Source of the DNA: Psammoneis japonica
Taxonomy: Eukaryota
DNA length: 64,000 bases
NCBI GenBank assembly: GCA_008632985.1
Contig: QPGO01000006.1
Location: 372,001 to 436,000, forward strand
Reading direction: 5' to 3'
In this document: positions 1 to 59,400 of the stretch, piece by piece
Layout: each line of letters begins with the position of its first letter
Numbering within the stretch: position 1 is the first letter of the stretch
Program-made: the position numbers and the translations under genes
The notes under the pieces: model-generated
Databases searched by the model: none
What the model was told of the DNA's origin: nothing
The model's input: the letters and a program-made list of their open reading frames with translations, nothing else

Positions 1-250
1 GCTTTTGTTCTTGTTGGGTGTTGCGGACATCATTGCGTTTTCCGACGTCTACAAAGGATGGTTTCCTGACTGGCCTGGTGGATTGAATTTCCCCATTGGC
101 ATGTTTGCGGAACCCAATGGCAGCCCATTCAGTGTTCCTGACTGCTGGATCTAATGATCACAGAACAAATGTCATTTCGCCAAATGCAAAGTCCCAACCT
201 GTCGATGACACTTGATTCATCCACGGGGGGCAGCACTGACAAAGAAGCAG
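1..250 (+). repeat. Direct repeat copy A (partner at 2758-3023)
   Basis: Shares long identical blocks with copy B, e.g. acaaaggatggtttcctgactggcctggtggattgaatttccccattggcatgttt. Confidence 0.9.
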
Positions 251-1162
251 CACATGGACGATGCCGACCGCAAGCAGGCCAAAGTCGAACCCGGCTGCTG
301 CTCACTGGATGATGACTCTGTTGTCATTGCTCTTGAAAAAACACCTGACTTTTCTCTGACGTCCACGCTTGGCCTTGAGCATGTTGCCGACCCAGCGAAA
401 ATCGGTCGCTCTGTTGCTGTCCCTGCTAACGGCAACTGTGGGTGCCACGCTGTGCTGAAGGGACTGGAGGAGGCTAGCTCAATCAAAAAAGGCACTTGCA
501 ACAAGGACATGACTGGTTTCCGAAAACACATGCATGGTTTTGCTGCACAGAACTTTGAGGGCTTGTGCGGTTGGCCCTTGGATGATGGTGCAGGTGAGGA
601 CAGAGGTCTCTTGGCGGCTGCGTGCGATGGGAAAGTCATCGGGGAATTTGTTGTCGACAAGAGGAATGAGCACAATGCTGGTGCAAGCCGGAAAGATCGA
701 TTTCTAAAACTGCTTGCTTGCATCTGGAAGACTGGGATTGACTTCAATTCTGGTTGTGGCAAAGGTTGTTGGTGTGATGCGAGTGCATGCAGCACCATTG
801 TCGCTCTCAAGTGTGAGCAATTGATTGTCTGCCATGGAATGGGAAGCAACAAAAACACGTCCATGTGCCATCATTCCAATGGAAAAGTGCAGCTGTTGTT
901 TGTAAGAGACACTTGGCTCTCTCCTCCGGCCAATTCCATCACCACAACCCACGACGGCGGCGGCCATTTTGAACACTTAAGTCCAGCAAGTGCAAAAGGA
1001 AAGGCATGTTGTTGTGTGCTTGGCCAGAGTCATTTTCATTTTAAAAAAAGCAACCTCACAATTTACTCCCATTGTGCTTGCTTGCATCATTGGGACATTC
1101 TCGACTCCGGCCGTGAAGGATGTGGTTCCTGCCATTGCCACCAAAGCGAGCACCGAAGCTGA
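212..1162 (+). pseudogene. OTU-like cysteine protease remnant, probably transposon-borne
   Basis: VPANGNCGCHAV matches the OTU catalytic Cys box (typically V.GDGNC.Y.A). HDGGGHFEHL matches the His box. Only one Tyr in 316 aa. Confidence 0.6.
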
Positions 1163-1981
1163 CAACAATGAAAAGGCAGCGGTAAGTTTTGAGGTGTGCC
1201 ACAGTTCGTCATGCAGTGCAAGGCAATCCAACCATGTCATGTGCGAAATGAGTGCAGATTCAGCAGCAAGACTCGTTCCATTGCCGCAACAACTGAGCCA
1301 GCCTGCCGTCTCGGACTTGGGACTCACTCAGCATTCCATCCAAGCACCTTTTGGGACATTCGGCATTCCGTGGGAATGGAAGGCGGTCAAGGTTTCATTT
1401 CTGGTGGCCCGTCTGTCCGCCTGTCGGTTTTCGTGTCTCAAAGCCACAGAAAAATTGAAAATTTGGGTCGCGCGCATCACTCATCACAAACCGCACATGC
1501 CAATGGCGTCACTTTGGAGTCCTCATTTCGCGTCAACCACAGATTGAACCATGGGTGCACCATCTCCTGCTTCCACATTGTGGAGGACGAACAAGTTGCC
1601 GATTGATTTGGCCATTGGAGCCATTCGAAACATTGCCTCAAAGCTTCATCACCAGAAGACCACACTTCAAACTGATGCCGATGGCAGTGCCGGCAGCGAC
1701 ATCATGAGTGTCGACATTGTGCCCCCTCGACAGCAATTAAAAGTGGCTCTGGACGCCAATCTCATTGGCAACAGGCATCTTGGAGATCGCTCTCCATTTG
1801 ATCCCGATCAAGCCGTCATGCACATCGCCGAGGCGTTGTCCAGCATTCACGTTGATGTGGCAATTTTCGCCAATCATCCAACGGAACGCCATCCGTCAAA
1901 ACAAGCAACTTGCAAGTGAAGGGCTGACGCAGCAAAGGCTGGTGTACAACTGACAATGGCCCGCCCAGTTCCAACGTCACC

Positions 1982-2920
1982 TTGAGTTTCAGAGTCTCAA
2001 AGAAGAGGGGCCCACCAAGGGGGGCAAAAAAACTCGGCTCACCAACGGCCTTTTTGGGTCATCCCCAAGATGTCTGCATTGCCAATGTGGAGCAAATTGT
2101 CAACAATAAATTGACAGTCAAGCAAATGGTTGACAAGTTCTCCATGGAAGGCATTCACCTGGCTTTCAAAGGACATCTCAACTTGATGGCGTTTCAGCAA
2201 GCAAACAAGGATGATGCGATTTTTGACGCGTTCCAGCCCTAGGTGGGACTCCGTGTGACATTGGGCCCGTAGAATTCTACGTGCGAGCTCCGTAGTACGA
2301 GAATTTAATTAATGGATATAATTATCTTCAACATCAAATAAACGGCCAAGTTTGTGGTACAATTATGCCTCTTACCACTCGACGTTTTTGCAAATGCACC
2401 TGCCCTACGCGATTCTTAAGACATTATAGAATCGCGCTGTAACAAAAAATGTCAAAAGTTGTTGGACGGATCGCTCAATAAGTGTACCGTAAAATGACAC
2501 AAAATGTCAAAAAATCACGTAGAATTCTACGTGCGCGACATACGACGAGATTCAAAAAACTATCGATGTCACAGTTCAGTAGTACGAGGTCCCACCTAGA
2601 CCTGGAACGCGTCTTTTTACAGTTTTGCTCAAACTGCCAACAATGTTGGCCCAACAGTTGCTCAAGAGAAGATCAATGTCCTCAAGAGTGGGAACTTGGG
2701 AGCTTTGAAATCTGACTTGATTTTTTGCAAGGCTAAACAGTTCTCGGCTTTGTTTTTGCTTTTGTTCTTGTTTTGGGCGTTGCGGACGTTGTTGCTGCGT
2801 TTTCCGATGTGTCAGCACAAAGGATGGTTTCCTGACTGGCCTGGTGGATTGAATTTCCCCATTGGCATGTTTACGGAACCCAGTGGTGGCCCATTCAGCA
2901 TCCCTGACTGCTGGATCTGA
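1982..2920 (+). pseudogene. Hypothetical ORF interrupted by the 2225-2613 MITE
   Basis: Removing 2225-2613 plus one TTTT copy fuses ORF 1982.. (..KDDAIF) in frame via YSFAQTANNVGPTVAQEKINVLKSGNL to ORF 2696..2920 (GALKSDLIF..PDCWI*). Confidence 0.6.
2225..2613. mobile_element. MITE, 389 bp, 25-bp TIRs, 4-bp TSD (TTTT)
   Basis: gacgcgttccagccctaggtgggac (2225-2249) is the inverted copy of gtcccacctagacctggaacgcgtc (2589-2613), 23/25 match. T-runs flank both sides. The palindrome cgtagaattctacg occurs twice inside (2268, 2518). Confidence 0.85.
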
Positions 2921-3023
2921 TGATGCACAGAACACATTGTTTCGCCAAATGCAAAAGTCCCAACCTGTGTCGATGACACTTGATTCGTCCACGGGGGGCC
3001 AGTGCTGACAAAGAAGCACCACA
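2758..3023 (+). repeat. Direct repeat copy B (partner at 1-250)
   Basis: Aligns to 1-250; the differences are mostly transitions at TA/TG/CA/CG dinucleotides plus small indels. Confidence 0.9.
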
Positions 3024-3252
3024 CAGAAGAGACTACTAAAAAAATAGTTCAATGCACCACGGCAGTGTCCTTGCCTCCTGACGGAGTCTCTACTCCTGCT
3101 TAGACTGTTGTCAAGATAGATGAAAAGATAGAGTAGTGTGGGAAACCCGTTGCATCCCAAAATAACGAGTCACGAGTTGTTCCGGGACTCAACAAAAAGA
3201 CTCCCAGATGTGCGATATCCAGATAGTCGATAGTAGCGTTCTTGCCATTATC

Positions 3253-13236: not shown

Positions 13237-13613
13237 CGTAAGAAGTATTCCAAGATTGGCTTGTTTTTGACCAAAGAAATACTCCTGTCTACTTTGGACT
13301 GCGATGCCCGAGACACTACGCAAGATGCACTCCACTTACGTGGCACTTGATCGCAGAACTTCGAATCCAAAATTTCAACTAGTACCGCACATCAGTAGAA
13401 AATTCTCACCTAAAAACTTGAAAATCTTTGACGCGTTCAAATCACCGTTGCAGTTTGCGTTACTGTATTCCAGGTGGCACCGTGAAAACTACTGTACAAA
13501 TCAGCCATCAGCAGTACACACGCGTGAAGTCAAAGGCGTCGTATCCGAAATCCAAAAAGCAGAAAGGGAATCTCCTGTGTGCGTGGACACAATAAACCCG
13601 TTCAATTTGGACA

Positions 13614-14499: not shown

Positions 14500-17400
14500 A
14501 TGATAGCCTGCTGCAAAACAAGCACCATGCCCATCGAAGTGACATTCAACGCACCCATTACCACATTCGCCCGTGTTTGCCAGATTGAGAAGGTCACACC
14601 GGCAACTTTTACATTTGAGAGGGGGTTGGAGTTGGAGGCAGCAAAGTTGGAAGTCCAGCCCCGTTCTAAAAATCCTTTTCCTTCACATTATTTGAGTGTG
14701 CGGTGAGGCATTTGCATGTTGTTGTGACGTCATTTTTGCTTTTTGCGGAGCCCGTGGCAGGTTGAGATGCTTGAAGCGGTTGGACCACTTGATTCAGTTG
14801 CTCTTGCATGCCTGCCAGTTGTTGAGAACACTGAGACTGCATGGTGGGCCGCCATGTCTTGTGCGTGATCTCAGAGCTCTTGGAAGGCTTGATCATGCCA
14901 ACATTGCATCTGTGACAGCAACTTCTGCACTTCGGCCACATCTGCACAGAAGTCAAAGAAGAGCTGGATGACAGGGCAGCTTGGGTGGCACTGGCGTGTG
15001 AATGCAGAGGAGGGGTGGTCCCAAGACATCCATCATGTCCAAACAACAAGGGTGCAAAGGAAGGCAGTTGGGCAAACATGTGGGGAGGAGGAGCCAAAGA
15101 GCCTTGGGTGTGGTGGCGCCATGACCTGGAAGACCATTCCCATCAAAGCCTCTCCTGGCAGAGGAACTCAGCTTGCAAGGGCAGGTGGATCTGGAGGTGA
15201 CAGCATTGGTCAAAGGAAACACACAAAAGAAAGCCAAAGATTCAAAGCTTTGAATGCTGGCCAAAACAATTGGTTGATGAGAGGACTCCACAGCAATTTG
15301 GTTGTCTTTCAAAGTTAAAAAATTGTTGCCATGTGCACAACCAATGAGGTTTGAAACCACCCAAATTTTGTCTGTGACAATTTTAAAAATTGCCACATTG
15401 TGCACTCTGATGAGGGCTTGGAAAACGGACATCAGAATGTTTTTTAGTCTTTGATTTTCTGGATTTCTTTGATTTTCTAGATTTGTTTTCATGAACAACA
15501 TCAACCATGCCAAGGCATCAGCTCTTCTTTTTTGCTGGCTTGTGATGGAAACTCTCACAGCACAGTGTGACAGCAAACAAGTGGTGCCACAACTGCTGAG
15601 TGGATTGCTCTTGATGCTCATGCGTGTCGGTCAGTGTGGGTGTTTGTCTGCTGCAATCTCTGAAAATTGCGCAAGACCAACCCCTGCAAACACATGCAAC
15701 AAATGAATGTGACCCAAACTGTGCCATGCAATCTTGTCCTAAACCACACAGAATGAATGTGAGACAATCGCTGCAGCCATGGGTTCTGAGTGAGTTGGCT
15801 CTGAAAACTGGGCCACCTCAACACTTGACACAAACCTTCTTCCAGCTGTGCACTTTTCTGGAGTTCCACTGCAATTGCCCTTCTTTCTTTAGTTGCATTG
15901 GCAAATTGACTCACAGTTGCCGCTGGATCACCCTCACTTCCATCAAGGACTCCTCAAGGGCCTCAATTTGTCTGCCAACAACTTTCATGCAGTGCTCAAA
16001 TCCTCGTCCCGTTCCACCATTTCCTCTCATTTGGCATCTTGGATGATCTGCCTTGGAAACTCACAGGTCAATGCATCCTTGAAAGTGTGGCCCATGTGAT
16101 GGGTGACTTGAAGTTCAATGTTTTTCAAATTGAACTCCACAGTGCCAACAACCACACACTCGCAAGCCTTGTATGAAACCATGTGTGAGACTCTTTTTGT
16201 GTCATCATGAAAGCCCACTCCATTGGAAGAAGATCACATTCTTCCATCACACGATTTTCCCACCTTTCATGCAGATGCACCTTTGCAACCTCCCCCAGTG
16301 CAACCAGTGAATTGCCCGAGTCCTCCTCCAATGCCAATGGTTTGTGTGAACCAAAGGCTCTGCCAGCACAGTGCTCATTGTCAAAAGATCCTTTTCCAAA
16401 ACTTGTCATGCTGGGGTCAAAAAGTGAGTGCTGCGCACAGGAGCAGTGCAAAAAGGTGCTGCAGTCAGATTGCAACACAGAGCTGCAGAGAGTCCATGAG
16501 ACAGAGCAACAAAAATGGAAACTTGCAGTCAGTTCAACAGCACTGGCAATCTCATGAACAACATTGCACATGAGATCCCACAACAGATCATGGCAGGTGG
16601 AAACAAGAACTGCTCAACTGACAATGGCAGTGCGTCAAAAATGGCCACCATTTTTCCATCCATCTTTGCAACACAAATGGTGGAAACATGGAACAACCTT
16701 TGGAGGATGCTTCCTGCGTGCTCAACCACAAAATTTGATCCAGCTTGAGAGGCATCTTTCACTGCCACCTGGCCTGTTCCAGCTCCAGGTGCTCCGTGCG
16801 GGTTCGATTCCCATCATTTGGAAATTTGTGCATTTGGCGCAATTGGCTTTTTCCAAATCCGTTTTTTGCCAAATCGAAGGGTGAGTGCACACTTTAAATG
16901 CATTTTCGGGTTTACACTCACCTTTTGATTTTCGAAACGATCAAAATTGAAGGAGTCAATTGCGCCAAACTGCGCAGAAAATCGGCCTCTCTCGCGTGAT
17001 GAAAAGCGGATCACCTGGAGCTGGAACAGGCCACCTCCACGTCTCCCAGTTTTCTTGCAGAACACCTCCGCTGAGGTGGCCAATGGCATTCTTGACTTCT
17101 CCTTCCAAATCCTTGGGACTGAGCAGATTCTCAATTTTGCGCGCAATTTGAAAAATTTGATGGCTCGATGAACTTGCTTGCGCCTCCTCAGAAGTTCTTG
17201 TCAGCATGAATGACACAAGCATGCTCCACATCTGAAACAGACAGACAATCACGCCAGCACTGTTCAGCACCGCCAAAATGATTTGGCTTGCACAGAAACC
17301 AATCTGATGCCTCTTCCTCCATGAGCTTGTCTTCCAATGTCTGCTTCTCTTCGGGGAATTCTTGAGACATTTCAAGGTTTCCGTTAAGACATGATGCCAA

Positions 17401-17540
17401 TTTCCTCCTGATCTGAGCCATGAAGTCAAAGACAACAGGAGCTGGCACCTTGGAATGGCGGAGGCACAAATTCTCCTGCAGTGGCTTTTCTTTGTGTGCT
17501 TGACACTCAACGAGCGGTGTGTGATTGGTTGTTCTTTCTC
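14500..17540 (-). mobile_element. TpA-depleted degenerate repeat of unassigned family
   Basis: About 3 kb with very few TA and overlapping Cys/His-rich pseudo-ORFs in all frames. Boundaries are estimated from composition only. Confidence 0.5.
16771..17032. mobile_element. Foldback-like MITE, 262 bp, 26-bp TIRs, 4-bp TSD (ACCT)
   Basis: ggcctgttccagctccaggtgctccg (16771-16796) vs cggatcacctggagctggaacaggcc (17007-17032), 25/26 match. ACCT at 16767-16770 and 17033-17036. Extra internal inverted repeats (tttggcgcaattg / caattgcgccaaa). Confidence 0.88.
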
Positions 17541-36700: not shown

Positions 36701-37258
36701 TTTAAGGACCTGGGCATACATGACGTTGTCAAGCCCTTCATCCATAAATGCGCCCAAGCTGTTTACAAAGGGATCGAGATCTTGTAGCATGGCCCACACG
36801 TTTTCTCGCAGATTATCAGGCGACGTAGAGTCACAGTTTACCATGATAGCGATGATCATGTTTAACTCCACTCCTATGACTTCTCGGTGGAGATCTCGGG
36901 GTCCATTCTCGTCTATGGTCACCTCTGCGTGTGCCAAGAATCTTTGCCTGCTTAATCCTGGAGTGAATTCCTTTTCCTCTAAAACGTCTGATGAGACTGA
37001 ATCAAACACCACAGATTTCCCGTAGTAATCAACCAGCTTTGAGAGGAGAAATAAGTCCATAGCCTGTTCAATGTTGTTCAAGCTCTCCTCTTGAAGTAAC
37101 CCTTCCGTCTCGAAAAGAAACATTTTGAATGCCGGAAAAATGACTGGGTCGCCCCTGCAATGCTTCTCAACTTGGGCGTTGGCCTTCCTTGCAAAGAGGG
37201 CAAACACTAATCCCATGACGCAAAGGATCATCTTTGTCCATGACCTTTTTCTTGTCAT
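30797..37258 (-). CDS. Large type I membrane mucin-like (PS/PT-rich) surface protein
   Basis: Signal peptide, duplicated N-terminal domain, long PSxxPS repeat, duplicated juxtamembrane domain, TM (LVVAITAATVGVGMAVFAIW). Predicted 84-nt intron 30848-30931 (CGA|GTAAGT..TTTACAG|ATT) and last exon INNRWQKSTGATKPKG*. Confidence 0.85.
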
Positions 37259-37754
37259 CGTGGGAGAGAACTCGATCAGCGGTATGTTTACCAGTTGGTT
37301 TCTTTTCTTTCTGTTGTACAGTGTATGTTGTTTGTGCTAAATTTGTGTGTGGCTCTTCTCATGCCTCGTCTCGTCAGTTTGTGAGCGCGAACGCCCAAAC
37401 AGAAGGCAAACGGATATCATCACACCGAATGTGATTACATAAATAAAATATTAAACTTTAAGAATATAAAAAATGAAATGTTTCAGTTTGAAACCGTAAC
37501 GGTTTAATGAGTGATAATGAAGGTCGAAAACGCAAATAAGTATGTCTGCAATTACTCAGAACCTTTATAAACGAAAGAAACCGTCGCGCTGTCTTTATGT
37601 CGGATTTTTATATGTAGCTTTGTCAATGTATAATTCGTTTAAGATTTGAAATTGGCGTATCATATTAATACTCTAATGCTCTAATTAAAATTGAAATTTA
37701 GAAAAAAAATGGCTGTATCCGAGCGACGGCTTGCCCTACAGTACGGTACGACAA

Positions 37755-41375: not shown

Positions 41376-44300
41376 TTGAAACCATCCAGTCCGCTGCGAC
41401 TGTCGCTGCTCAGTGGCTGCCAGCAGGGCAGTTGACATTGCGTTGGGAGTTCGCAGCCAGCAGTTTGGAGTGCACCCACCCAAAGCCCAAAACCTTGCTG
41501 AGCTCCAAATGTTGGGACTTGAGCCCCCAGAGAGCTGGAGGCAAAGAAGGAGAGAGATGAGGCGGGACGGTCAAACCCTCTGCAGCTCTGGTGGAGCTCT
41601 CTCTATCTTTGCATTGCAACAACAAGAGGCTGCAACAACAACAGCTTGTCAAGGCTGGAGAGAGCACTGCTGGCATTGCTTCAACTCTTCTTGCTGTGCC
41701 CGCCAAGAATGTGCGGCCGGTGTGGGCGCGATCTGCTGTCCTCTGGCGCTGGTGGCGCGCAGCGGCTCTCTCATTGCACATGCCTCACTTCTGTCTCCCC
41801 CCACCCTCCCCAAATGAAGATGCTTTGAAACCAGTCTTTTGCGACTCTGTCGCCACAGCTGGGGCAGTTGATGTAGTTCAAAGCCAGCAGTTTGGAGTGC
41901 ACCCACCCAAACAAGACAAAACTTCACTGTGAGCTCCCAATGTTGCTGGGACCTGAGCCCAGAGCCACAAGCCAGCTGCACAACACATTGACTGGGTGCA
42001 AGACTTCAATGGAGAAGAGAGAAAGCTGGGAGCCATGCCCAGCTCTGGGTGTTGTGCCCAACCTTGGAATGTGCAGAAACATTGTGATGGTGGCCAGTGC
42101 GGGAGCAGGGGTCTTTGCATGTGGGTGGCTGGTGAAGTGGGGAACAGCAAAAATGTCTTCAGCTGAGGTCATCTGGAGGATGTGTCAGATCTGAGTTGTT
42201 GCACTTGATGGTGAACACACCACAGGAAGGCACTGCCAGACAGTGTCTCCTGCCAACAAGCAGCAGAGTCACAAAGACAATGTTTTGCCCAGGTGCATGG
42301 CCCTGACGGTGCTGGGTCAGACAGATTGGGTGTGCGCCAACATCATCGGCCTTGTCAATGCATTCTGCAGCAGCCCACAGGTGCTTGAGCACAGGATTGG
42401 ACTTGACAAGTTGGCTGGTGCCATCACTGACATCATGAAAGACATTGACAGCAGTGCATTTGTTGGCACCTGGGTGTGGTCGAGACAGGACATGGTGGGC
42501 AGACATGGCAGCCCAAGACTTCTTGGCAGGGCACATGAGAGGGTTGTGAGTTCAGTGCTTGGTGACCATGGCATCTGCCTCATCATTCTTCCTGACACAA
42601 AGGTGGTGAATTTGCTGTCAGCAATGCATGGCTCCAGGTCATTGTGAGGCACTTCTTGACTCCTGTGAAAGAAAAAAATGCAAGTTGGCAAGGGTGAGCA
42701 GCTTTGTGCATGCTGTTTCTCACCAGACACAGTCAAAGGTGCCCAATGTTCACACAAGCACATTGCAAAAAAGAACATGCCCCATGAGCAAGTTTGCCAC
42801 TTGCCTTGTTGAGGTCAGCACCCATGGACTGGGAGAGAAGCACCTGCAGGAGATGGGGCATGATGGCCTTTTCATTGGTTTTTTGCCAGGGTCCAGATTG
42901 GGGTGTCCCTTCAGCTGTCCCAGCACAGAAACTGGCAGAGTTGGATGGGTTCATTGTGGATGGGTGAAGGGTGACCACTGGCAGTGAGCCCCACTGGCCT
43001 CAGCCACAGCATCGTCAATGGTGGCATGGATTGTGTCAGATGCTGGTGCCAAAGCTGATTTTGCATGCACGGGACTGGTCTGGAGCACATTGGCTTGGAC
43101 ATGAGGTTGATTTGCTGAAGAAAAAAAACAGGTGCAGTGGCCCCTGTGGTGATCTGCCTTGTTTCTGGGAAGTTCTGGTGCCAATGCCTTCACACAGCAG
43201 GCTCCTTGAGCAGCCATGTCACAACTTGCAACATGAGCTTGGGCAGCACAGGACACAGTTAGAGTCAAGTTGGAACCTGGAACCTGGAACCTGAGTGGGG
43301 AGGAAGAGGAAGCAATGGAACATGTCAGTCAGAGCTGTGCCAAGGAGAGGTGGGTGCAATGGGAGAGGGAGTCAGCAACCAGGTTCTGCTTTCCAGCTGA
43401 CCATTGATGCCCATTGTGCAGACAGTGCCCCTCCTTCAGAGTGGACATGGCCAAGGCATGTGCCACTCATCATCAAAGTTCAATTTTCCCATCCAGCTGG
43501 CTGGCAGCAGAGGAGATGTGATCACCTTGTGGCAGGTGCTGGCATGACTCTGGTGGGGGGCTGGCCAAGTGGAGGTCCATGTGATGCATGATGTGGCATG
43601 CCAAGAATTCCAGGGTGTTCAGGATGGCTTGATGGTGTGCAGGTGAGGAGGAAACTCCCATTGCCATGCAACATTGGACATGGTGGTGAGTGCAAAAACC
43701 CCAATGCTGCACTTGCAAGCATCCAACAAGTCAATGGATGCCCACTCAGGGAGATCAGCAGGGCAACATTTGGGCTGATGCCAGAGGCAGCACATGGCAG
43801 GAACACCAGTCATGGGATCAGATCTGCACACTCCTGAACCCATGACAAGACAACACCCTGCACCCAACACCATTGAGCTGCACAAAGGGCTTTGGCAAGC
43901 TGACCATGAAATGGTGCACCACAGGGTGGGATGATGAACACAATGAAGCCAAGAAATGTCTGACAAGGAACTCAGGTTGTGCCTTGCCAACACACAATGA
44001 GACTTTGACAGCATGTCACCATGAACAGAGGTCGTCCACACAGCCACTTTCTTCTGTGGCAAGGCAACGGACAAGGCAACAGTGTCAACCAACCATCCCA
44101 ACATGGGGTCTGGACATTGGCCAGAGTGGCCTCCACTGAGAATTTTGTGCAAGCAAGGAGATCCTTTTGCAGGATGGTCTCAAGCTGTGATGCACCATGC
44201 ACCAGGAGGACAGCCAGGAAGGTGCAGGATGAAGGGGGCTGCAGATCCACCATGGGCACAATTGTGCTCCAAGAATGTGGTGAAGATGTGTTCAATGCAG

Positions 44301-46543
44301 ATGTTAAACTTCGGTGCAGAATCTGGCAGAAAGTTCATGGCTGGCTCAGTCCAGCACAGTGGAAGAGAAGAAGGCAGTGTCAGCTGTGTCCAGCAATGGC
44401 ACAGGAGGCAGCAATGCATTTGCTGCTGTGAATGGCAGGTGCTGGAAGGGTCCCAGAAAGCATGTCAGAGACAAGGTCATTGTGGAGATTGTGCACACCA
44501 TGCCAGCTTGTCAACATTGGACCAGAGGCTTGGGTTGGCAGCACTGCCAAAGGTGAGGTGGAGGGTGCAAAATGCAAAAGGTGTCAACAGCAACAATGGC
44601 TTGTGCCATTGACAAAGGGTGCAACAGGTGCAGTTGCTGGCAAGGCAAGTTTCAGCTGACCTTGGTCTGGAAGATGTGTTGATTGGGGGGAATGTGCATG
44701 GGGAGGTGCGCAACGTGGTGAATGCACCACAGCGCATTGCCCAGCCAAAGCAATGTGGGGTTGGGTTGGCCATGTGGACCCCACCAGTGGCTGCACCATC
44801 AACCTTCAGAGATGATTTGTGTTTGGCAAGGTTGTGCAGGAACCCAAACTTGGGGTGATGGCACCATCAAGCCTGCCTGGGAAAGGAGGAGGCAGATGGG
44901 TGTTTGCACACACAACAGCTGCTGAGAGAGACAGAGACATTGGAAACTCAGCCAACAGCCACTCTGTGCTAGCATCAACAACCAATGGACTCCTCATCCA
45001 AGACCAGCTTGGCCATGTTGACAGGGCAAGAGTTGTTCAACATGGAGCAGCACCAATTGCAAAGAGGGGCAGGCTTGCTGCCCACAGGTGGATCTGGCAC
45101 ACTCTCCTGCTCATCATCCCAGCTGGCCCGGCCCTGCATCCTCCTCATGAGAGCCAGCTGGGGAGAGGGCTGGGCCACTGCCCACAGTGGGGAGTTGCTG
45201 CAAGGGATGCCCCCCACACATGTCAGTTGGCTGGAGTCAGCACTTGTTTGTTGGAGTTTGGCTTTCTGGGCAGTGACCCAGGCTGCCATGTTGGCATCTG
45301 AGTGGATGGCATCAGGTCCCTTGCAGCTGTCTTTTTGATTGTGACATCTTGGTTTTGCATGTCAGGGCTGGCAAAGTGCCATTTGGTGCAGACAACACTG
45401 CCAAAAAGGTTGGGACAGCAAGCAAGAATGTGCCATCTGATTTTTCTTGATGTGCCATGGGGCAGACATCATCATGCTTTTGTCATGTCATCATTCTCTT
45501 GACTGTGAAGCCTGGGGATCACTTGGCACATTTTGCTGGTGGCAGCAATTCTGGGTTGTTGAGTGCCCTGTGGCCTGACCCTTGTCAGCCAGTGTCTGCA
45601 GGATGCACTGGCCATTGTGAAGGTGCTCACAGAGGCTGGCAGCATGCTGTGGTGCACTGGAAACAAATGACCCTGCTTGTCACCCAGCAGAGCCTGGGTG
45701 CAAGCATCACAAGGTGGCATTGCATTTTCGTGTGTTGATGCAATGTGAGAATTTCAAGGGGAAGGACTTGTCCTTCTGCAGCATGCTGTCATGGTCAGCC
45801 TCATTGTTGCTCATCATGTGAGAGAGCAGAGCAGAGGGGGGTGGAGACCAGCAATGATGGGGCTGTTGTCCCCAAGGATTCCAGCCACCAGATGCAACAG
45901 AAAGAGTCATCATCAGCATCTTGTCCAAAAGGTGTTGGCATTGCATGGAATGAGGAGTGTTGCCTTGGTTGGTTGCCTTGGCAACATTGGTGCTGGTGGT
46001 GAGTCCAGCACTTTTTTCTGTTTTCATGTGGAAGAACATGTGACATCCTGTGCATGGGTGGGCACAGCATTTTCTTGGAAAAGCAAGAAAATGTGATGCT
46101 GCAGGCTTTGGGTGAGTTGGCTGCAGAGTCCAACAAAGCTTGCCCAGGCAGAGCACTTGGCATGTGGAAAGAGGGAGGCTCACTCTGCACTTGTGAGCAC
46201 ATTGTTGAGGATGTGAGTGGTCAACTGCTTTCTTTGCAGCTGTCCAGTCCAGCAATTCCTTGCACACATCACTGCTGGCTTTGCGCATGCACACCAAGCC
46301 CCCATTGTTGACATCAATGGTGCCAGAGGGGTTGGGAGTTCTGAAGCATGTTGAGGGTCATGCTCTCTCTGAACCCTTTTCAAACCTGTTTTTTGGTGTG
46401 CAATGGATGTGCAGCAGGCTTCCCAAGTCAAGATGTGCAAGAGCATGGTCAGGGTCAAAGGGCAGGGGAAAGGAAAAATTGCACCCTCTGCAGCTCTGGT
46501 GGAGCTCTTGGCATTGCAACAATGAGAGGCTGCAACAAAAACA
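41376..46543 (-). mobile_element. Decayed tyrosine-recombinase retrotransposon (Ngaro/PAT-like, split direct repeats)
   Basis: RT remnants LHLTFGSAANPSLWS, PKFNICIEHIF, MLGWLVDT..LPQKK..W. RNase H remnants DACKCSIG, LNTLEFLA. YR remnants CPAKKSWAA, DVGAHPI, LLVGR. Repeats A (46483-46543 / 41575-41643) and B (~41820-41965 / ~41376-41532). Confidence 0.75.
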
Positions 46544-46604
46544 AGGGTGGTGGCGCATCCAAGGGCGCATCGAGGCCTGAAGTGCGCGCGTGTTGTTGCG
46601 CTGA

Positions 46605-49600
46605 GATGCCGGGACAACAAGCGCGCATTCGTGCCCCAGGGCAGGAAAGCGCCCTGCAGCCGATCGCTGGGCAGGGCGCCAGACATCGCAAAGATGTCAA
46701 GCCTCAACATGCATTTGGCACCCGCCGCCCGCCGCGCCACCGCCCGCAGAGATGACATGGCACTGAAGACTGCTGCAACAAACGCTCATAAAATGAAGCC
46801 ACGAAATCGCTTTTGTGAACAAGCTCTGTTGTTCTGTTGCATCAAACGCAGGACCAACACGAAGCCAAGCAAGGGAGCAATCAAAGCCCTCATCAGGGAA
46901 GGTCTTGATGATTGTGATTTTAAAGAGACAGAGCACAACACATCAGTTCAAGCGGGTGAAATGAGACGACCACGTCAAAATGCTCCATCACACCATGAAT
47001 TCGAGAACAGGCACCACATGGAGGAAGAGACATTTTACATTTTAGTTGATGCTCCATGTGAGGATGCAACAGCAAAACTTGCAAAATCATGAAAGCTGTG
47101 GCATTGCTGCAATTGCTGGCATGCAGATCACTCCAGACAACATGAACTCAAAGTCAATCCAATCAACCCGACAACAACTTCACATTTTTGGTTTTGATTT
47201 TGAGCACAGTTGTACATGCAACATTGTGTCTGTGCAGTTTACATTCTGATGGACTGGTGGAACTGAATCTGCTGGGGCCTGGTCTCCAACACATGCTGTG
47301 ATTCGCATTGTGTCCACTTCCGTGCTGTGCCATTTTGTCGTGAAACTCTTTGAGCTGGCGATTGAAGTGCGCACGCTGCTCTTTTTTGTTTTCGATTTCT
47401 ATTTGGGTCTCGTAGATTTCTGGAAATGTAGATTCTTGCAAGTCAGGTGCGTCATACAAACCACCAGAGTCGGCATCGGATTCGTTGAAGTCACGCCACG
47501 CTCTGTCCTTGGATGCCTTGTTTGATGCCTTTTGAGGCTTCTTGGCATTGCTGCCATTGTTGGCACTCGATTTAGGCAATTGGCGAGCAACAGATTTGCT
47601 GTGTGATCCTTCCGGAAGTTCACCTTTCAAGAAAATGAACCGAGTGTACAATTTGAGGACGCATGACGAGTTGGATTTTAATTGAAGAAACATGAAAGAG
47701 CAATCGGCGCCAGATCTGACATACAAAAAAATAAATCTTGGGTTCAAAATTTCAAATTCAACAGACACTAGACCCTCATTGACGGATTTAACATGGCATG
47801 GAGCGAAGTGACGTCACCTCGCGAACACCGTTGGCCATGTTGGACGACACCAACAATGGCAACAATGGCGGTTCCAAATTGACGCCCACGAAACCCCCTG
47901 CCAAAAGAGCTGGAGTGGAGACTCGAGACCTTGCCCTTCTTGCGAGTGAGGAAGTGCAAGCAAAGAGATTGAGCGAGAAGACGTTCTGCAATTGCACCTT
48001 GGGGTCAACTTGCCAAACACGTGCTTGCTCATGCTACAAACAATGACCAACCGTGTGCCAACTGTGTTTGCTTCCACAAATGTAAGAACAAGGAAGGACT
48101 CCCAACTTGCAGTGTAAGTGACAGGAATTCGGATGAGAAGACACGGAAACTTCTAACCTCCCCGGAAACCAGTCCACTTCAACCGAAGATTTGTCAATTC
48201 ATCAACGACACCCCTGATGATGCCAACAAACAAAACAAAAACAAGGCCAACACCAAAGCCAACAAAGAGAACATCGCGCCCAACAATCAGAGGATGGATG
48301 CTGACGAGGGTGGAAATGATGAGGAGGTCACTGCCACCACAAGGGACAGTGAGCGGTCGGAGGACAGATCGGGCTCGGAGGGAGCTGTCATTCCGTCAAT
48401 TGACGACACCAGTGACACACCCAACGACTTCAATTCAGACGCAGAACGGATCATCTGCGAGACACACGGCGAGACATGTCACCTTGGTGATGGCACTGAG
48501 CTGGATGGTGGGACACTGGACGACAAAACGTGGCAAGAGCATTGGCGCCGGCCAATGCCCTGTCCATCGCAACGATGCGACGCACCAAATGGCTCGGTTG
48601 GCAAACGATTCATCACAATGTTGGCAGAACTGCTAGATGGAGTCACGAGGCGGAAGTGGAACTCGGAAAGATTCACAGCACATCAGACGGTTGTTTTACA
48701 GCGAGACCACAACGTCAAAGGAGCCAAAGACATCAGAACTTTGCTCAGCACGCGCATGGACGATTGGGACGCGGGTGAGCACAAAATGCTGGTCCAATCA
48801 ATGGAACGGCTACTTGAAGCAAACCCAAAAACCACTCAAAGGGAGGAAACGCCTGAGCAGCGCGCCAAGCCATTCAACAGAATGGTGCTCCAAGGGAACC
48901 TACGAGGAGCGGTTGGGTGCATCTCTGAATGTGAAAAAGGTGGGATTCTGTCGCCGGATGACATTGATGAAAAGACCAACGACACAGTGTTTGAAGTCCT
49001 TCAGAAGAAACATCCAAACCAAAGGATCCCGGATGAAGACCACTTTCACAAATTCAGCAAACTACCTGAACTCCAGGACACACTCATCACCGACGGCACC
49101 ATCGAAACCGTTGCGCGGAGACTGTCCGGAGGCGCAGGACTTGGCGGGTCTGATGCCAACGCAGCATCAGAGTGGCTTCTCCATCACGGAAAAGCCAGCG
49201 GATTGCTTGGAGAAGCGTCATGCATGTTCGCAAACTGGCCAGCAAACGAGTCCCCCCCATGGGCCGCATGCCGTGCAATCATGGCGAAGAGACTCGTCGC
49301 ACTGGACAAAAATCCAGGCGCACGCCCGGTCGGCACAGGGGAGGTGTGGCAACGAGCCACCACCAAAGCCGTTCTCCCAGTTGCTGGAGCAGAAGCCAAG
49401 GAAGCCTGTGGGACAGATCAGCTTTGCGCGCTGGACTAGAAGCAGGCATCGAAGGTGCCGTTCACACGATGAACCCACTCTGGGAGCAACACAAATTCGA
49501 AGACGACTGCGGTTTCCTCTTTGTCGACGCCTCCAACGGATTCAACAAAGAGAATCGGATCCTCACGCCACACAACGCAAGGCACATGTGGCCATCGGGC

Positions 49601-52327
49601 GCAAGGTTCACCTTCAACAGTTGTGAGCATTGGAGCATCCTGATCATCCGTGGAAACTTCGGGACCGCCTTCATCTTGTTCAGCAAGGAAGGCGTCACAC
49701 AGGGCGATCCACTTGGCATGGCAGCATGCGGACTGGGCCTTCTTCCACTGGTCCGTGAAATGAATGAGCATTTCAAAGACGCACTCACGCCATGGCACGC
49801 CGACGACTCCGCAGCAGCAGGAAATTTCGCGACACTGTGAGAATTCTTCCTCAGTCTCCGAGCCAAAGGCCCCAAACATGGCCACTGCCCTGCCGACAAC
49901 TCCAAGAACATCCCAGCAGTCCCAGAACGCAACCTGGAAAATGCCAGAACACACTTTGGAGATCCAGGCTTTACCATCAAGTCTGGCAGCCGTCACCTCG
50001 GAGGCTTCATCGGAGAGTCCGACGCGCGTGACCAATGGCCAGTGGAAAAAGCCGAGTCATGGACCTCGGTCGTCCAGGGACTCGCCAAAATCGTGATTCA
50101 TCACCCTCAGACCACCTGCGCTGGTCTGCAGAAGTCCCTGCAACACCAGTGGCAATGCGTCCAACGTGCAGTTAAGGACTGCGGCGAATGTTTGCCGACG
50201 TAGAATGCGCAACACAGCACAATTTCCTGCGGCTTTGACAGGTGAGACCCCAACAGATGATGACCCGAGACCAGCCCCATCTGCCCTCCCAATCAAATTT
50301 TCGGGACTGTCCATCCCTTGTCCAACTGAGTCCGCAGCTCATGACTGCAAAGTGAGCACTCTCACGTGTTCCCACGTGATCAACTCACTCTGCGGCCGCT
50401 CCCAGTTCTCATCCGCAGTCCACAAGGACACCATGCGCGAAGTGAAACAAGAAGCAGCCGATCGAAAGGTCACAGCACACGGGGAGACCCTCAAAACGAT
50501 CCTCAGGACCCTGCCCGACCTCCAGGCCAGAGCTGTCAAACGCAGCACCAAGACAGGCATGTGGCTCTCAGCACACCCTTTGACACTGAATGGTGTGGAA
50601 CTCTCATGCCAAGAGTTCCGTGACGCGCTTTTCCTGTGGCATGGCAGCACTCCACCGGACCTCCCGGAGCACTGCGATGGATGTGGATGCAAATTCACAA
50701 TGAACCACGCCCTTCAGTGCAAGAAGGGCGGCCCAGTCATCTCACGACACGATGAAGTCCGTGACAACCTGGGCGACCCAATGGGCAAGGCTTACAAACC
50801 TTTCTGTGTACGCAACGAACCTCTAATCAACCCTGCTGGTCGCAGCGCAGGAAGCTCTCAAGCACCCCCACTGGCTCCCCAGGAAACACCAACTCCAACA
50901 AGTCCAAGGATGGCGATCGCGGTGACCTTCTCGGCATGCGATTCTGGGATGGAAGGACAGACATGGTCACGGACATTCGCATTCCTGACACGGATGCGAA
51001 GTCACACCCATCCAAAACACCAGAGGATGTCCCAGCAATGCACGAACGGGAGAAAAAGCGCAAGCACCTCAAGCCCTGTCTTGAGCAACGCCATCATTTC
51101 ACACCCTTCGCAGTGTCATGCGACGGACTCTTTGGCAAAGAAGCCAAGGCAATGCTCCGCAAGACAGCCTCAAGACCATCAGACAAATGGCAAAAGCCAT
51201 GCTCTGAAGCATGTGGCTGCGTCAATGCGAGAATGAGCATTGCCACAGTCCGGGCGACTCACCGTTGCCTCCGGGGATCCCGCATTCCTGCCTCTCACAT
51301 CAGCTCCAGACGATCCCAGTGGGAAGACAGTGCTGGTCTGTCCCTGTGCAGACACCAAATGACCCCGCCCAACCGACTCGCACCCTTCCAGACAACATGC
51401 CAACCGACCATCCACCCACAACATCGACATCATGCCTGGAAGTTGACAAAAACCCACCACCACCCCGAAAACGGCGCCACAACTGTTTCAAATTTCGCGC
51501 GCACAGCCTGCAATCTTGCGCGCGACAACTGCCCCTTATTCGCATGACTGCATTAACTGTGTGACACCCATTTTTCTTCTTTGAAAGAGCAACTCAGACA
51601 GAACAATGATGCTCGCCGGTTGGTTTCTCAAAGACACCAGGAAACCAAAAAACAAACTCGTGAAAACACAACAAGCAGCTGCTGTTGCTAACAAAGTCCA
51701 AGAAAGGCTTTGCCGACTCCCTGCCTGCTTCATCGTCTTGATCTCCAAACTCTCCATGCTTCCCAGACAGTTTCCAGTTCTTGAGTGCACACTCATGTTC
51801 CTTCACACACGACTTTAAAATGTCCTCTGACTTTTTTCCACACAATGTCACTTGAAAACTCACTGTTCTAGGGTCCGAGCCTCTGAAAGCTCGAATGGGG
51901 TGCGACGACCTTGGTGACAACAGTGGCGCCATCGACACCAGACACCACTCGTGTCGCTTGTGCCGGCAACAGGCGCTTTTCGAGAAGACGTCAGACCGAT
52001 GGCACCGCTGTCTTCATCACCAGACGAAGCAAGCAGCTCTTCCGTACTGAGAGTGGGCGTTGTCTTGCCGCTGGAAGGGGCGGGAGTGGGTGTTCATAGA
52101 GCGCCGCTCATGGTTGCTTGTGTGTTTTTTGATGTGAGAAACGGTTGGAGGGAGTCGCTGTCAAAGTGCCACCAAAGCACGTAGGATTGTACGTGTTGTG
52201 GCACTCATCACTTGCCGGGCGCCCTGCGAACAAGAGAAGTGCCCAGCAGGGCGCGGTTTTCCGGGTGCCTTCCGCCCGGCAGGGCGCTTTTTGCCCGCGG
52301 GCGCAAATGCTTCGTTATCCCGGGCCC
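46605..52327. mobile_element. Internally deleted PIF/Harbinger-like DNA transposon hosting a LINE
   Basis: Imperfect GC-rich inverted ends (ccgggacaac..aaagcgccctgc vs gcagggcgcttt..gttatcccgggccc) with TGA on both flanks. Plus-strand remnant EFENRHHMEEETFYILVD and a convergent second ORF split by the LINE. Exact ends are uncertain. Confidence 0.5.
47770..51545 (+). mobile_element. Non-LTR retrotransposon, CRE-like clade (RT + CCHC finger + restriction-like endonuclease), inactivated
   Basis: RLVALDK.PGARPVG.GE, DQLCAGLEAGIEGAVH, VDASNGFN, GVTQGDPL, WHADD, HLGGFIG; CDGCG..HALQCKKGG..RHDEVRD; RGDLL..DIRI.D..EREKKRKH..FTPF. Frameshifts and stops are present. Confidence 0.9.
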
Positions 52328-52439: not shown

Positions 52440-53476
52440 ATGGCAGAATCATCTCATGATCAGGAATGCGTCAGAGGATGTGTAATTGTTGTATCAAAGT
52501 GTCCTATTCCAGGCAAAAGCAAAACTCGTCTCGTTCCAGCGCTGGGGGCGGAAGGATCTGCTTCCGTTGCCAAGGCCATGCTTACCGACGTGCTTGTAAC
52601 CCTTTCCGACTGTGTGAGTATAAAAACTGTCTGGGGAATGGTATTTTCATAGCTTATTTACATACCTTACCTGTATGTGTTTGCTTCTTTCTTCTGTGTT
52701 TTAACATAGTCTCTGCTTGACGAGGTTTCCAAAGTTCTCTTGTATGCTCCTGGTGATCGCGACGGGCTTGAACACATGAGAGAAATACTTGCTTCGCTGC
52801 AACTCCATGAATATTCTCCAGACACACCGCATGGCTGGATGCTACTTCCATTGATTTCTCCTGATTTAAAGGCATCCGACTTGGGTGCCATGCTAGCGGA
52901 TGCGTTGCAACGAACACGAGAAGCGACAAGTAGTACTACCGATGGAGGCGTTGTCTTTTTGGGAATGGATGCTCCAGAACTTCCCTTGGACGAAATTGTT
53001 TGTAGCTTGCAACTGGCAGCAAAGTCGAAACAGAATGCCTTCATGTGTCCTGCCGATGATGGTGGGTATGGCATGCTTTGTGTTCCGCCCCAAGCACCTT
53101 CGTCTATTTTTGAACATGTACAGTGGTCGTGTCCCCTGACGGCAATGTCACAAATAAAGGCCTTGACGGATCATGGTATCAATGTAACAATGGGTCGAAT
53201 ATGCATGATATTGATGAACACTCGGATCTCTTAAAGTTGGCGAAGCGATTATGTCGACTCTACAACAACAAAGACAACGAGCGGGTAGTCGACGACGACG
53301 ACGTACGATTGCATGCACTCACGAGAAGCAGCATATTGGCGACAGATATTGTGGTAGAGCCATCTCAATGTAGCAATACCTGGAAAATGCTACAGGAGTT
53401 GAAGATTGTAAAGGAAAATGGATCGACTGATTCAAAGACGAAGCGATTCGTTCTTGTCAATGATAATTCAGAGTAA
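52440..53476 (+). CDS. DUF2064/TIGR04282-like (CofC-related) GT-A fold transferase
   Basis: KCPIPGKSKTRL, DLGAML, VVFLGMDAPEL, PADDGGYG, IFEHVQWS, DIDEHSDL. 96-nt intron 52614-52709 and a 1-nt indel at ~53200. Confidence 0.8.
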
Positions 53477-56487: not shown

Positions 56488-59400
56488 CTACTCTTCGAAA
56501 TGAAGCACTGTAATTTTTCGTTCCATGTTGCTCTTGGCCGCCATCATTTTCATTACTTGCTCTGCTGTGCAACTTCGAGTGTCGACATTGTCGACCGCAA
56601 TAATGAGGTCGCCCTTGTACACGTGCCCTTGCAAGACAGAGCCCGGCTTGACAGTGTGCACGGCAGGACCGTCCTTGGTGGAATGAATAATGATTTGTAG
56701 CTTTCCTGGCGGAGCAAAGCAATCCCGACAAACAATGCTTTGAGACTTTGTTGACTGTTCAGTCTCGTCATTGGATGAAGGCGAAATGTATGCGTCGTCG
56801 GAATCATACGACAAGGAGTCCGCCGGAGCTTGTGCTAGAACCTGTTCGGGGGTACTTGGAGGAGGAGGTTTCGTTGACAAGGCAATGGACGCAGCCGAAG
56901 GGACCGCGGAAGATTCAGAAGATGCTCCTGGCACTTCCCAGGCCGTAGGAGAGGCCGAGGGTACACTCGATGATGCAGGAGATGACTCAGGTGCAACCAA
57001 CGGGCGGCTACCAGATATCTTTTGCTCGAGCCACACCAAGTCGTCAATGAGTTTTGGGCTGGGAGGAGGCGCTCCTGCAATGCCAGTGTCCTTTGATACA
57101 AAGCTGTCTTCAACAGAAGATTGATTAGTTCTTGGAGAAGCACCGGCTCGTGGAGACGCACCGAATCCAGGAAAGACACCAGTTTGTGGAGACTTGGGTT
57201 GCTTCTCCTTTCTGGAAAAGAAGAATCTCCTTTTCCTTGGCTTGGGCGGGCTAGGCTCTTTTTCAGATATGGACGAATCACTCATCTGATCAGAAGACCG
57301 GTTCGACCAGTCAAGAGGGTGCATAGCGTTAGTTTGGTAAAAAGTGGATCCGTCTGCTGACAATCGCAGTCGATGCTGCCGGCCTGCAGCTGCATTTTCT
57401 GCTTCGGTCTGTGGTGGGACGGCTCCGTCCACCTCATATGGATTCTGGTACAGAGGCGATTCAATTCCTGTTGAACCTCCTCTACTTGAAGCCTTTTGTT
57501 GGTTGATACTCTGTCTAACACTGGCGTCTGATTCATCCTTTTCGGATCTGGCTTTGGATGATGTGACTGTACCGGTTGCAGCCGCTGCTGCTATTCCTAC
57601 TGCAGTTTCCGTTGCCATTGTATCACGGCGATTTTCTACACTCTCAAGAGCCATAGTGGATGAAGAAGCGTTGGGTGCGTCGCTATTCATGCACGGAAGA
57701 CATGCATTGTTGTCGGGATTTTTGCTTTCAACAACAGACGTCGTTGACGGAGTCTCGGTGCTTCGATAAGTTTTGCTATCGTTGGCTGCTGCTTCCGCCA
57801 CAAACATATCAATTCGTTTGTGGTCGTCACTATCAGAAGCCATGGTGGATGATGCATTGGCAGCAGGGCTATTCAAGCATGGAAGACACGTATTGCTGCT
57901 TTCAACAGCAGATGTACTTGATGGAGTCTCCGTGCTTCCGCCATTTCCGTTATCGTTTGCTGCTTTTTCTGGGGAGCCCTTATCTTTCCCAGCGGCAACT
58001 ATTGCTGCAACACCCACAGTTCCTGCAGCGCCAGCGGCAATCAGACCAGCACTGGCAGCTCCGATACCAGCAGAGCTATCGCTCTTGCCATTCACAACCT
58101 GCTCGCTTCCAACTCCTACTGGATGCTCGGAGGTAAGAAGAGAAGACTGTTCGGGAAATTCGACTGTGTCAGTATCGTCGTCGTCTTCGGAGAAGGCAAA
58201 TAGAGAACCACCAACATTTCTCAGACTACTTCTGCTCGTCTTAGAGGGTCCTGTATTCTGCATTCTCTTCGTGATAGCACTGGAGAATGAAGGTTTTGTT
58301 CCAGCCATGCCATAGCTGTCGGGAGTACCGGGATAGCTCATCGGTGATGCAGTAAATACCGAACTGACCCTTCCCGAAGAAGGCCGCTCTCTATTGATTG
58401 GCCTGCCAATGAATCTTCAAGCATGTCTCCATTTTCTGCTTCAAGATCCATATAATTGAGATCTTTGCTCTCGGTAGCAGCTATCACCTCTCGCTCTCTG
58501 TTTCGTCGCTGAATCATAAACAATCCAACAACCGCAAAGAGTGTTGTTGCACCAATCAGAACCGTACTGACAAGAACTGTGTTCTTAGCCGTAGAACGGT
58601 TGTTGCTATTTGTATTCTCTGCTTCTGCACCAGAGGGGGTGCCGATGGCTCCACCGGGATTATCTCCAATGTAGGCGCCTGTGTACCTGTTGGCGAAATC
58701 GTCCCATCATTTTCTGGACTCGTTGGGGTTGTCGGCGAGTCACGTACTGATGTAGGTGCAGATGTACTTGGGCTTCCACCTGCATTATTTACGGTTGGTG
58801 AAGTTGTGACATCACCGCCACCGGGTAATAGCGTCGGTGTCGTTGGACTGTTGCCGTCTGGTGTTATCGTTGGAGACGAGACCGAACTGTTTACTGTCGT
58901 TGGTACCAATGTGCCGGGGCTTCCTTCTCCATTTTCAGTTGGTGAAGCTGTGATATCCCCACCACCGGGTGACAGCGTTGGGCTTGGGCTTCCTTCAACA
59001 TCATTTGCACTTGTTGTTGGAAAGCTTGTCTGTCCTACCGCCGTCGGAGAGTTCGTGCTCCCGTCTGCGGGTGCTGGTGTTGGAGACGTTGTGGGAGAAG
59101 CAGGTAAGCCATTGGAGAACGTTGGAGCTGATGTGCTGGGGCTAATGCCGTCATTCCCTGTGGGGGAAGTGGTGGTTCCTCCGCCATCTAGTGCTGGCGT
59201 AGGAGCAGTCGAGTCGTCACCACCAGTGATGGAGTGGGAGCAGTTGGACCGTCACTATTGGCTGTTGGTGAGCTTGTATTGCCGCCACCGGGAACTGATG
59301 TAGAAGAGGTCGGTGAGCCATCCGAAAGAGTCGGGGCTGATGTACCATCAGTGCTTGTCGGTGAAACTGTACTGTCTCCTCCATTGGGCGATAGCGAGGG

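Follow-up and report, generated by a model that had tools for sequence, protein, structure and literature searches.

Context-specific hypermutation of invading DNA is known from fungi, in the form of repeat-induced point mutation (RIP), and from animal APOBEC and ADAR. Fungal RIP, described here in part after the Discussion of the Bigelowiella natans preprint considered below, introduces C to T transitions mainly at CpA, so that new TpA and stop codons arise and GC content falls. Here we analyzed a 64-kb stretch of contig QPGO01000006.1 (hereafter the window, meaning the whole stretch) that contains a dead long interspersed nuclear element (LINE) of the R2/CRE group and several other blocks from which the dinucleotide TpA has nearly vanished. 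Our reading is that mobile or foreign DNA in this genome underwent DNA-level hypermutation of TpA to TpG or CpA on both strands and near saturation, and that the LINE was killed by missense. We assign this reading a probability of about 0.8.

The closest described system is that of B. natans, in which TpA to TpG/CpA hypermutation has been measured (Mettrop et al., bioRxiv 10.64898/2026.01.13.699255, 2026 preprint). In 15 mutation-accumulation lines, 231/302 mutations fell in integrated giant-virus and virophage regions, and 230 of these 231 were A to G or T to C, all on TpA. The rate given is ~6e-7 per site per generation. The same source reports 124 TpA-depleted, CpA+TpG-enriched clusters and 324 low-TpA coding sequences enriched for reverse transcriptase (RT), endonuclease-RT, and DDE domains, and proposes an ADAT2 homologue as the enzyme. 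No other report of TpA hypermutation, in diatoms or elsewhere, was found in a literature search conducted without subscription journals. An earlier note on this DNA, made from the sequence alone, had stated that it knew of no description of such a system, and the direct measurement in the B. natans lines overtakes that statement.

The window shares with B. natans transitions exclusively at TpA, to TpG or CpA by strand, their confinement to foreign DNA, and long-term clusters depleted in TpA and enriched in CpA+TpG. The targets differ, being giant-virus and virophage inserts in B. natans and a LINE, a repeat, and blocks with no credible Pfam match in the window. Depletion in the window is also near saturation (observed/expected ratio, o/e, 0.02–0.10) compared with 0.45 in the B. 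natans nucleocytoplasmic large DNA virus region. B. natans is a chlorarachniophyte with a measured de novo rate, whereas the window host is probably of another lineage. Fungal RIP resembles the window in its DNA-level, context-specific transition hypermutation, its in-place inactivation of repeats, and its sharp limits at repeat ends. RIP proper was rejected as a candidate, as the process in the window removes TpA, makes no stops, leaves TAA and TAG nearly absent, and raises GC content.

Two further systems act in a similar sequence context. ADAT2/ADAT3 (Tad2/Tad3) convert A to inosine, which is read as G, and two reports on fungal ADAT mRNA editing describe a strong preference for U at -1, before the edited A (PMC11156358, PMC11087585). 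These enzymes work at the RNA level and alter a single strand, whereas the change in the window is heritable and affects both DNA strands. In dinoflagellates, another lineage of the stramenopile-alveolate-Rhizaria group (SAR), a TET/JBP enzyme makes 5-hydroxymethyluracil with a preference for TA and TC, and transposable elements are enriched in this modified base (PMC11572971). The TA preference and the association with transposons match the window. The dinoflagellate modification is an epigenetic mark with no reported T to C scar, and TC is not depleted in the window (o/e 0.86–1.21).

We computed a 1-kb sliding profile of dinucleotide o/e over the window and compared four blocks with three host stretches. 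TA o/e was 0.23 (1–3025), 0.07 (14500–17540), 0.03 (41376–47300), and 0.10 (47770–51545) in the blocks and 0.59–0.63 in the host stretches (n = 3). TG and CA rose to 1.33–1.98 in the blocks, compared with 1.12–1.23 in host DNA. The longest TA-free runs reached 1819 bp, and Poisson probabilities of the observed TA counts were 1e-4 to 1e-66 at a background rho of 0.6. The four depleted blocks had been named in the earlier note, which also stated that the signature stops at host genes; both claims hold (TA o/e of 0.02–0.23 in the blocks against ~0.6 elsewhere). Of its division between 41376–47300 and 47770–51545, the depletion of each part was confirmed and their separateness was not, since depletion runs without a break from 41376 to about 52300. 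The features of the depleted regions are:

1..3030, no strand assigned: depleted block bounded by direct repeats 1–254 and 2758–3023 and truncated at the window start; TA o/e 0.10–0.11 outside a MITE-like (miniature inverted-repeat transposable element) insert
2225..2613, no strand assigned: 389-bp element with 30-nt terminal inverted repeats, TA o/e 0.94, from an inverted-pair search
14500..17540, no strand assigned: depleted block between host open reading frames (ORFs); TA o/e 0.07, CG o/e 0.34
41376..46559, no strand assigned: oldest depleted block; TA o/e 0.02 (5 TA in 5.2 kb), CG o/e 0.10, TG/CA 1.8–2.0
46560..47703, no strand assigned: left part of repeat R, the insertion target of the LINE; TA o/e 0.12–0.23, delimited by depth, empty-site joints, and other copies with TA
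47693..47703, plus strand: left copy of the LINE's 11-bp target-site duplication, from the empty-site joint 47692 to 51582
47704..51595, plus strand: full-length dead R2/CRE-group LINE; TA o/e 0.09, traced by tblastn with intact environmental ORFs of 1060–1251 amino acids
51583..51593, plus strand: right copy of the 11-bp target-site duplication, from the same joint
51596..52300, no strand assigned: right part of repeat R; TA o/e 0.19

Block edges were sharp in the sliding profile. Depletion stopped within ~30 bp of where the multi-copy region gives out, at 52300, and at the direct-repeat end, 3030; TA density was normal again from 52316, and the multi-copy region ends at 52281–52310. As in B. 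natans, the change was confined to presumably foreign or mobile DNA, with limits that coincide with repeat ends. Other than TA, TG, and CA, no dinucleotide was shifted except CG in the older blocks, with o/e of 0.34 (14500–17540) and 0.16 (41376–47300). The LINE had been called CpG-rich, which does not stand: its CG o/e is 0.78 compared with about 0.95 in host DNA, so that CpG is merely less eroded than TA.

This selectivity bears on a non-targeted regional bias, be it error-prone fill-in by DNA polymerase eta (WA to WG), gene conversion with a GC bias, or an effect of heterochromatin in general. The polymerase eta hotspot includes TA, and the blocks are intergenic and could be heterochromatic. 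Polymerase eta should mutate AA as well as TA, but AA o/e was 1.05–1.32 in the depleted blocks and 1.14–1.15 in host DNA, which tells against the candidacy of this polymerase proposed in the earlier note. AT was likewise undepleted (0.85–0.97 in the blocks, 0.93–0.97 in host DNA), so neither WA to WG nor a general AT to GC change fits. Block limits are defined to within tens of bases, and one block contains a 389-bp insert that the change left untouched. We therefore consider a regional bias unlikely.

Conversion of TA to TG or CA cannot create a stop and removes TAA and TAG, so long spurious ORFs closed only by TGA fill the blocks. Many overlapping ORFs were present in all frames of the depleted blocks, and the stop triplets on both strands of 41376–47300 were 219 TGA, 3 TAA, and 5 TAG. 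Compared with host TA, the surviving TA (n = 107; 1–3025, 14500–17540, and 41376–52300) stood more often in TTA/TAA and less often in ATA/TAT (chi-square p 1e-10), with TTAA as the commonest context. This bias may reflect newly arisen TA or a flank preference of the process.

The LINE shows the same change in its codons. We tallied columns with at least 60% agreement among at least six of 19 non-redundant environmental homologues, having set aside L002, L003, and a flanking ORF, which were redundant or unrelated. The window LINE kept 0/17 consensus-Tyr columns, reading 8 His, 8 Cys, and 1 Phe, and kept 455/652 of the non-Tyr consensus columns. The 1171 residues of its five-segment reading path included 2 Tyr, 43 His, and 45 Cys, and the ORFs 48021–49439, 49172–49840, and 50936–51547 contained no Tyr at all, as had been claimed. 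The examples named in the earlier note were all borne out against the homologues: catalytic YADD reads HADD (CAC at 49796), RYLGGFIG reads RHLGGFIG (49994), KKRKY reads KKRKH (51065), PPWAAYRA reads PPWAACRA (49269), and KPYS..CGYV reads KPCS..CGCV (51200, 51218). So too were its CTA to CCA, ATA to ACA, and GTA to GCA type changes, which appear against the homologues as L to P (10), I to T (4), and V to A (8). Together with I to V (7) and T to A (4), these are the other excess changes in the LINE, and they follow from TA to CA/TG at NTA codons and at codon junctions where T meets A, with I to V fitting (T)ATN to (T)GTN. R to H (3) and R to C (2) fit CpG decay. Since Tyr to Cys corresponds to A to G on the sense strand and Tyr to His to A to G on the antisense strand, the 8:8 outcome means that both strands were hit. 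The A:T to G:C transition occurred at TpA only, with Tyr replaced by His or Cys at 16/17 columns.

Divergence between copies places the change after duplication. The direct repeats 1–254 and 2758–3023 differ at 27 positions, including 6 adjacent CA<->TG doubles (12 positions), 2 TA<->TG, and 4 CpG-type differences. A CA<->TG double arises from one ancestral TA resolved independently in two copies, and it shows both outcomes, TpG and CpA, at one site. As a control, five informative host-gene repeat pairs contained 4 CA<->TG doubles in 640 differing positions; the host pair 61723–63200/61989–63463 overlapped itself, gave 0 differences, and was left out.

These results also address A-to-I editing of the LINE RNA by an ADAR- or ADAT-like activity favoring U at -1, with edits fixed via reverse transcription over many retrotransposition cycles. 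A retroelement is the main object here, and the U at -1 preference reported for fungal ADAT mRNA editing matches the context (PMC11156358). Editing of sense RNA would yield only TA to TG, and so only Tyr to Cys, however, and 8 His stand beside the 8 Cys. The same scar is found in the flanking non-LINE repeat, in the single-copy block, and in direct repeats that diverged in place, and the CA<->TG doubles between copies need hits on both strands after duplication. RNA editing is largely refuted by these observations, and we regard it as very improbable.

We compared the window with other genomic copies, represented by contigs from a read set whose library type is not on record. The window and these contigs differed at 270 places, 244 of them transitions. 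Among the 40 of 270 places that were listed, 21 were TA-type, 11 CpG-type, and 8 other, and at the 21 TA-type places the window always read TG or CA where other copies read TA or the opposite outcome (TA at 15). TA-type changes dominate these 40 listed places. Along with the direct repeats, these differences support a change at the DNA level, after integration or duplication.

A sequencing or basecalling artefact, in which a modified base in the TpA of silenced repeats is misread as G or C, deserves attention since the window spans nested repeats and so probably derives from long reads, and the read set may be from the same sample. The read-set contigs break into 70–350-bp pieces inside repeats, as in short-read graphs, and one 4668-bp contig at word depth 57 matches the TA-free block with 2 differences. 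From this match we infer that a long-read miscall is ruled out. The 15 listed places (40 of 270) at which other copies in the same data read TA also speak against misreading, the independent TG and CA outcomes in the two direct repeats would go unexplained, and unrelated metagenome assemblies show the same scar. An artefact thus appears exceedingly unlikely.

Relatives of the LINE in environmental data provide the unmutated state. Homologous LINE loci (n = 22) had TA o/e of 0.30–0.69. We also looked for family members with His or Cys in place of the conserved Tyr, taking the best 150 of 3615 cluster representatives at E <= 1e-30. Of these, 135 covered at least six Tyr columns, and 0/135 had His+Cys at 40% or more of them. 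The LINE family itself is not TA-poor. Conversion was partial in three sequences: L007 (4 Tyr, 6 His, and 5 Cys at 16 columns), L014 (4 Tyr, 3 His, and 2 Cys at 10), and P0012 (5 Tyr, 2 His, and 2 Cys at 10). The remaining 22 rows kept most Tyr, with at most one His or Cys at Tyr columns. L007 (177–3710), L014 (357–1904), and P0012 are copies of a sister LINE family in which about half of the conserved Tyr have become His or Cys, with TA o/e of 0.34. The 1178-aa frame of L007 is still open although most of its conserved Tyr are lost.

L007 and L014 share 94.5% identity, and their 95 differing positions include 11 CA<->TG doubles and 20 TA<->TG/CA singles. In L018, an unmutated relative serving as outgroup, 15/20 singles and 5/11 doubles show the TA state. 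Of its 104 TA, L007 keeps 21 and reads TG at 24 and CA at 20, with reverse flow of 6 and 10; numbers were too small to read a flanking-base preference of mutated versus kept TA in this pair. The Tyr tally, the doubles between repeat pairs, the L007/L014 comparison, and the copy differences together sustain the core of the earlier note, DNA-level TpA to TpG/CpA hypermutation of mobile or foreign DNA; the genome-defence role and the silenced state of the repeats, which the note also proposed, are presumed.

A compositional origin, in which the elements came from a donor poor in TA or were shaped by selection against UpA in their RNA, can draw on the under-representation of UpA in many genomes and on a TA o/e of 0.6 already present in host DNA. 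Composition would not account for destroyed catalytic residues and the loss of every conserved Tyr. All codon phases, non-coding parts, and both strands are affected, relatives of the LINE family have ordinary TA, and paired repeats diverged in place. We give this explanation hardly any credence.

Another repeat, R, received the LINE, whose insertion generated an 11-bp duplication. At the empty-site joint 47692 to 51582, 11 letters can be assigned to either flank, and the sequence from 51596 continues a loose end at 47704; this is one case of insertion, inside a repeat of which empty copies exist. Three distinct empty-site joints at 47622–47692/51582–51616 represent several R copies without the LINE, one of them with 46 other letters. 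Five frame segments were traced by intact single-ORF relatives (1060–1251 aa) from marine metagenome contigs: frame 2 at 47807–48040, frame 3 at 48045–49430, frame 2 at 49424–50188, frame 3 at 50223–50870, and frame 2 at 50864–51355. Four frameshifts (near 48042, 49427, 50205–50223, and 50867) and an in-frame TGA at 49838 interrupt the LINE. Two nucleotides at 49426/7 are missing in other copies from the read set, and their loss would close one frameshift.

A Pfam scan of the window LINE's own ORFs gave no match at E 0.01, so its RT is visible only via relatives. RVT_1 matched the intact relative L001 at E 6e-6, below the Pfam cutoff, and R2 retrotransposon proteins were the nearest solved structures to the family profile (E 7e-8), which identifies the RT domain as that of an R2/CRE-group LINE. 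With these R2/CRE-group LINEs the family shares a single ORF of ~1100 aa, an N-terminal Cys-rich region, a central RT, and apparently C-terminal CxxC...H...C followed by D...D...K-type motifs, and the window LINE shares a target-site duplication without a poly-A tail. The family alignment (A2) has invariant C831, C834, H842, and C846 and then D, D, and K columns downstream, a region without a library model or fold match that may correspond to the zinc knuckle and restriction-enzyme-like endonuclease of the group. The family departs from the group in its RVT_1 match below cutoff, and we place it at group level (CRE, R2, NeSL). The label CRE-like is thus upheld for the R2/CRE group, and the finer clade assignment is not, with R2 proteins nearest to the profile.

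Summed contig depth was 400–590 for the left part of repeat R, compared with 57 for unique DNA, and 400–1500 for R and the LINE together. Block 41376–46560 is single-copy today by depth (the 4668-bp contig at depth 57), so the description of the process as repeat-targeted is borne out only for the LINE, repeat R, and the direct-repeat element. Short direct repeats lie at 41575–41643 and 46483–46543 within 41376–46559, which may have originated as an old element or a foreign insert. A Pfam scan of 75 stop-to-stop ORFs from blocks 1–3 and repeat R found no credible family, with one chance-level NPDC1 match (E 0.008) below cutoff. The 389-bp element at 2225–2613 has inverted repeats that are 87% complementary, T-runs on either side, and CG o/e of 1.53, within a block whose TA o/e is 0.10. 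It looks like a MITE-like element that either inserted after hypermutation or was exempt from, or too short for, targeting.

The change runs from TpA to TpG or CpA, is specific to TpA, acted on both strands and after duplication, and is confined to the blocks. In the sequence of events that we favor, mobile or foreign sequences would enter the genome first, after which TpA would be converted to TpG or CpA, an A:T to G:C transition, on both DNA strands. Conversion would be nearly saturating and would halt at element boundaries. Conserved Tyr codons of the LINE (TAY) would become CAY (His) or TGY (Cys), the catalytic YADD included, and NTA codons would become NCA or NTG. Because conserved Tyr, including that of YADD, was lost, the LINE would have been killed by missense. 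A slower decay of CpG to TpG/CpA would be overlaid in older blocks.

We infer that a dedicated, targeted enzyme lies behind the TpA change. Our preferred candidate is an ADAT/TadA-type adenine deaminase acting on DNA, and the natural ADAT substrate, A34, always follows an invariant U33. Alternatively, a TET/JBP dioxygenase might oxidize thymine in TpA to a mispairing base, as oxidized thymine mispairs with G. Thymine oxidation is a candidate rival mechanism not considered in the B. natans preprint. The earlier note's wording that the process mutates adenines is too narrow: TpA is self-complementary, and A to G after T is indistinguishable from T to C before A. A further possible lead is the deaminase-SAM-Tudor protein, a type described as restricted to stramenopiles (PMC3239186).

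Several observations weigh against our interpretation. No de novo mutation was observed here, and the process may be extinct in the lineage. Over its first 87 bases the LINE shows only mild depletion (4 TA, o/e 0.48). The classes of copy difference rest on 40/270 places, and the read set, possibly sharing its sample with the assembly, is not independent confirmation. One of the most depleted regions, 41376–46560, is single-copy, and the Pfam scan recognized no mobile-element protein in blocks 1–3. The host lineage depends on two genes and a weakly supported tree.

Three window ORFs had no near-identical protein in a collection that included NCBI, UniRef, JGI, MMETSP, and EukProt. An annotated genome such as that of B. 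natans would have given one, which argues against a chlorarachniophyte host. Organism-named matches among the best 120 for the SDR ORF were nine diatoms and two raphidophytes at 55–61% identity, and the organism-named best matches for the patatin ORF were three diatoms. In a single-gene tree the window sequence grouped, at weak support, alongside pennate diatoms and unnamed sequences. An Atlas look-up on the lineage of the host was ambiguous, giving haptophyte as well as diatom clusters. Multi-kilobase uninterrupted host ORFs fit an intron-poor genome, and the B. natans genome is intron-rich. Judging from these sequences, the host is not a chlorarachniophyte but an ochrophyte, perhaps a diatom, in all probability.

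Other regions of the window are distinctive in their own right. Long ORFs at 6099–13335 (minus strand) carry fused bacterial-type domains, including SPASM, radical SAM, glycosyltransferase family 4, GHMP kinase, O-methyltransferase, and nucleotidyl transferase, and resemble a pathway for sugar modification, here in a eukaryotic setting with few introns. A 2138-aa ORF at 30920–37336 (minus strand) and the region 59188–63996 contain long diverged tandem repeats at 64–90% identity with no Pfam match. The ORF at 52710–53234 (plus strand) is a DUF2064 ("conserved in bacteria") ORF that adjoins the depleted island.

The phenomenon has thus been described in one other organism, and our results support its occurrence here on a retrotransposon in what is probably a different lineage. 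With a host that is probably diatom-like and not B. natans, this would be the second lineage with TpA hypermutation. A second, distant host would show that the process is not limited in age or spread to a single species and that it acts on transposons besides viral inserts, and it would give comparative leverage towards the enzyme. The long stop-free ORFs that the scar leaves in all six frames mislead gene prediction. More tentatively, and with the balance tilted somewhat against it, TpA hypermutation may be a SAR-wide genome defence that inactivates integrated retrotransposons by missense and spares short or late inserts, similar to the length threshold of RIP; this joint proposal would take in both the diatom-like window host and the marine hosts of L007, L014, and P0012. 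If it is SAR-wide, the enzyme could be found by comparing scar-bearing lineages, with an ADAT-derived DNA deaminase, deaminase-SAM-Tudor proteins, and TET/JBP as candidates. A natural TpA-directed A-to-G activity on DNA would be of interest to base-editor engineering.

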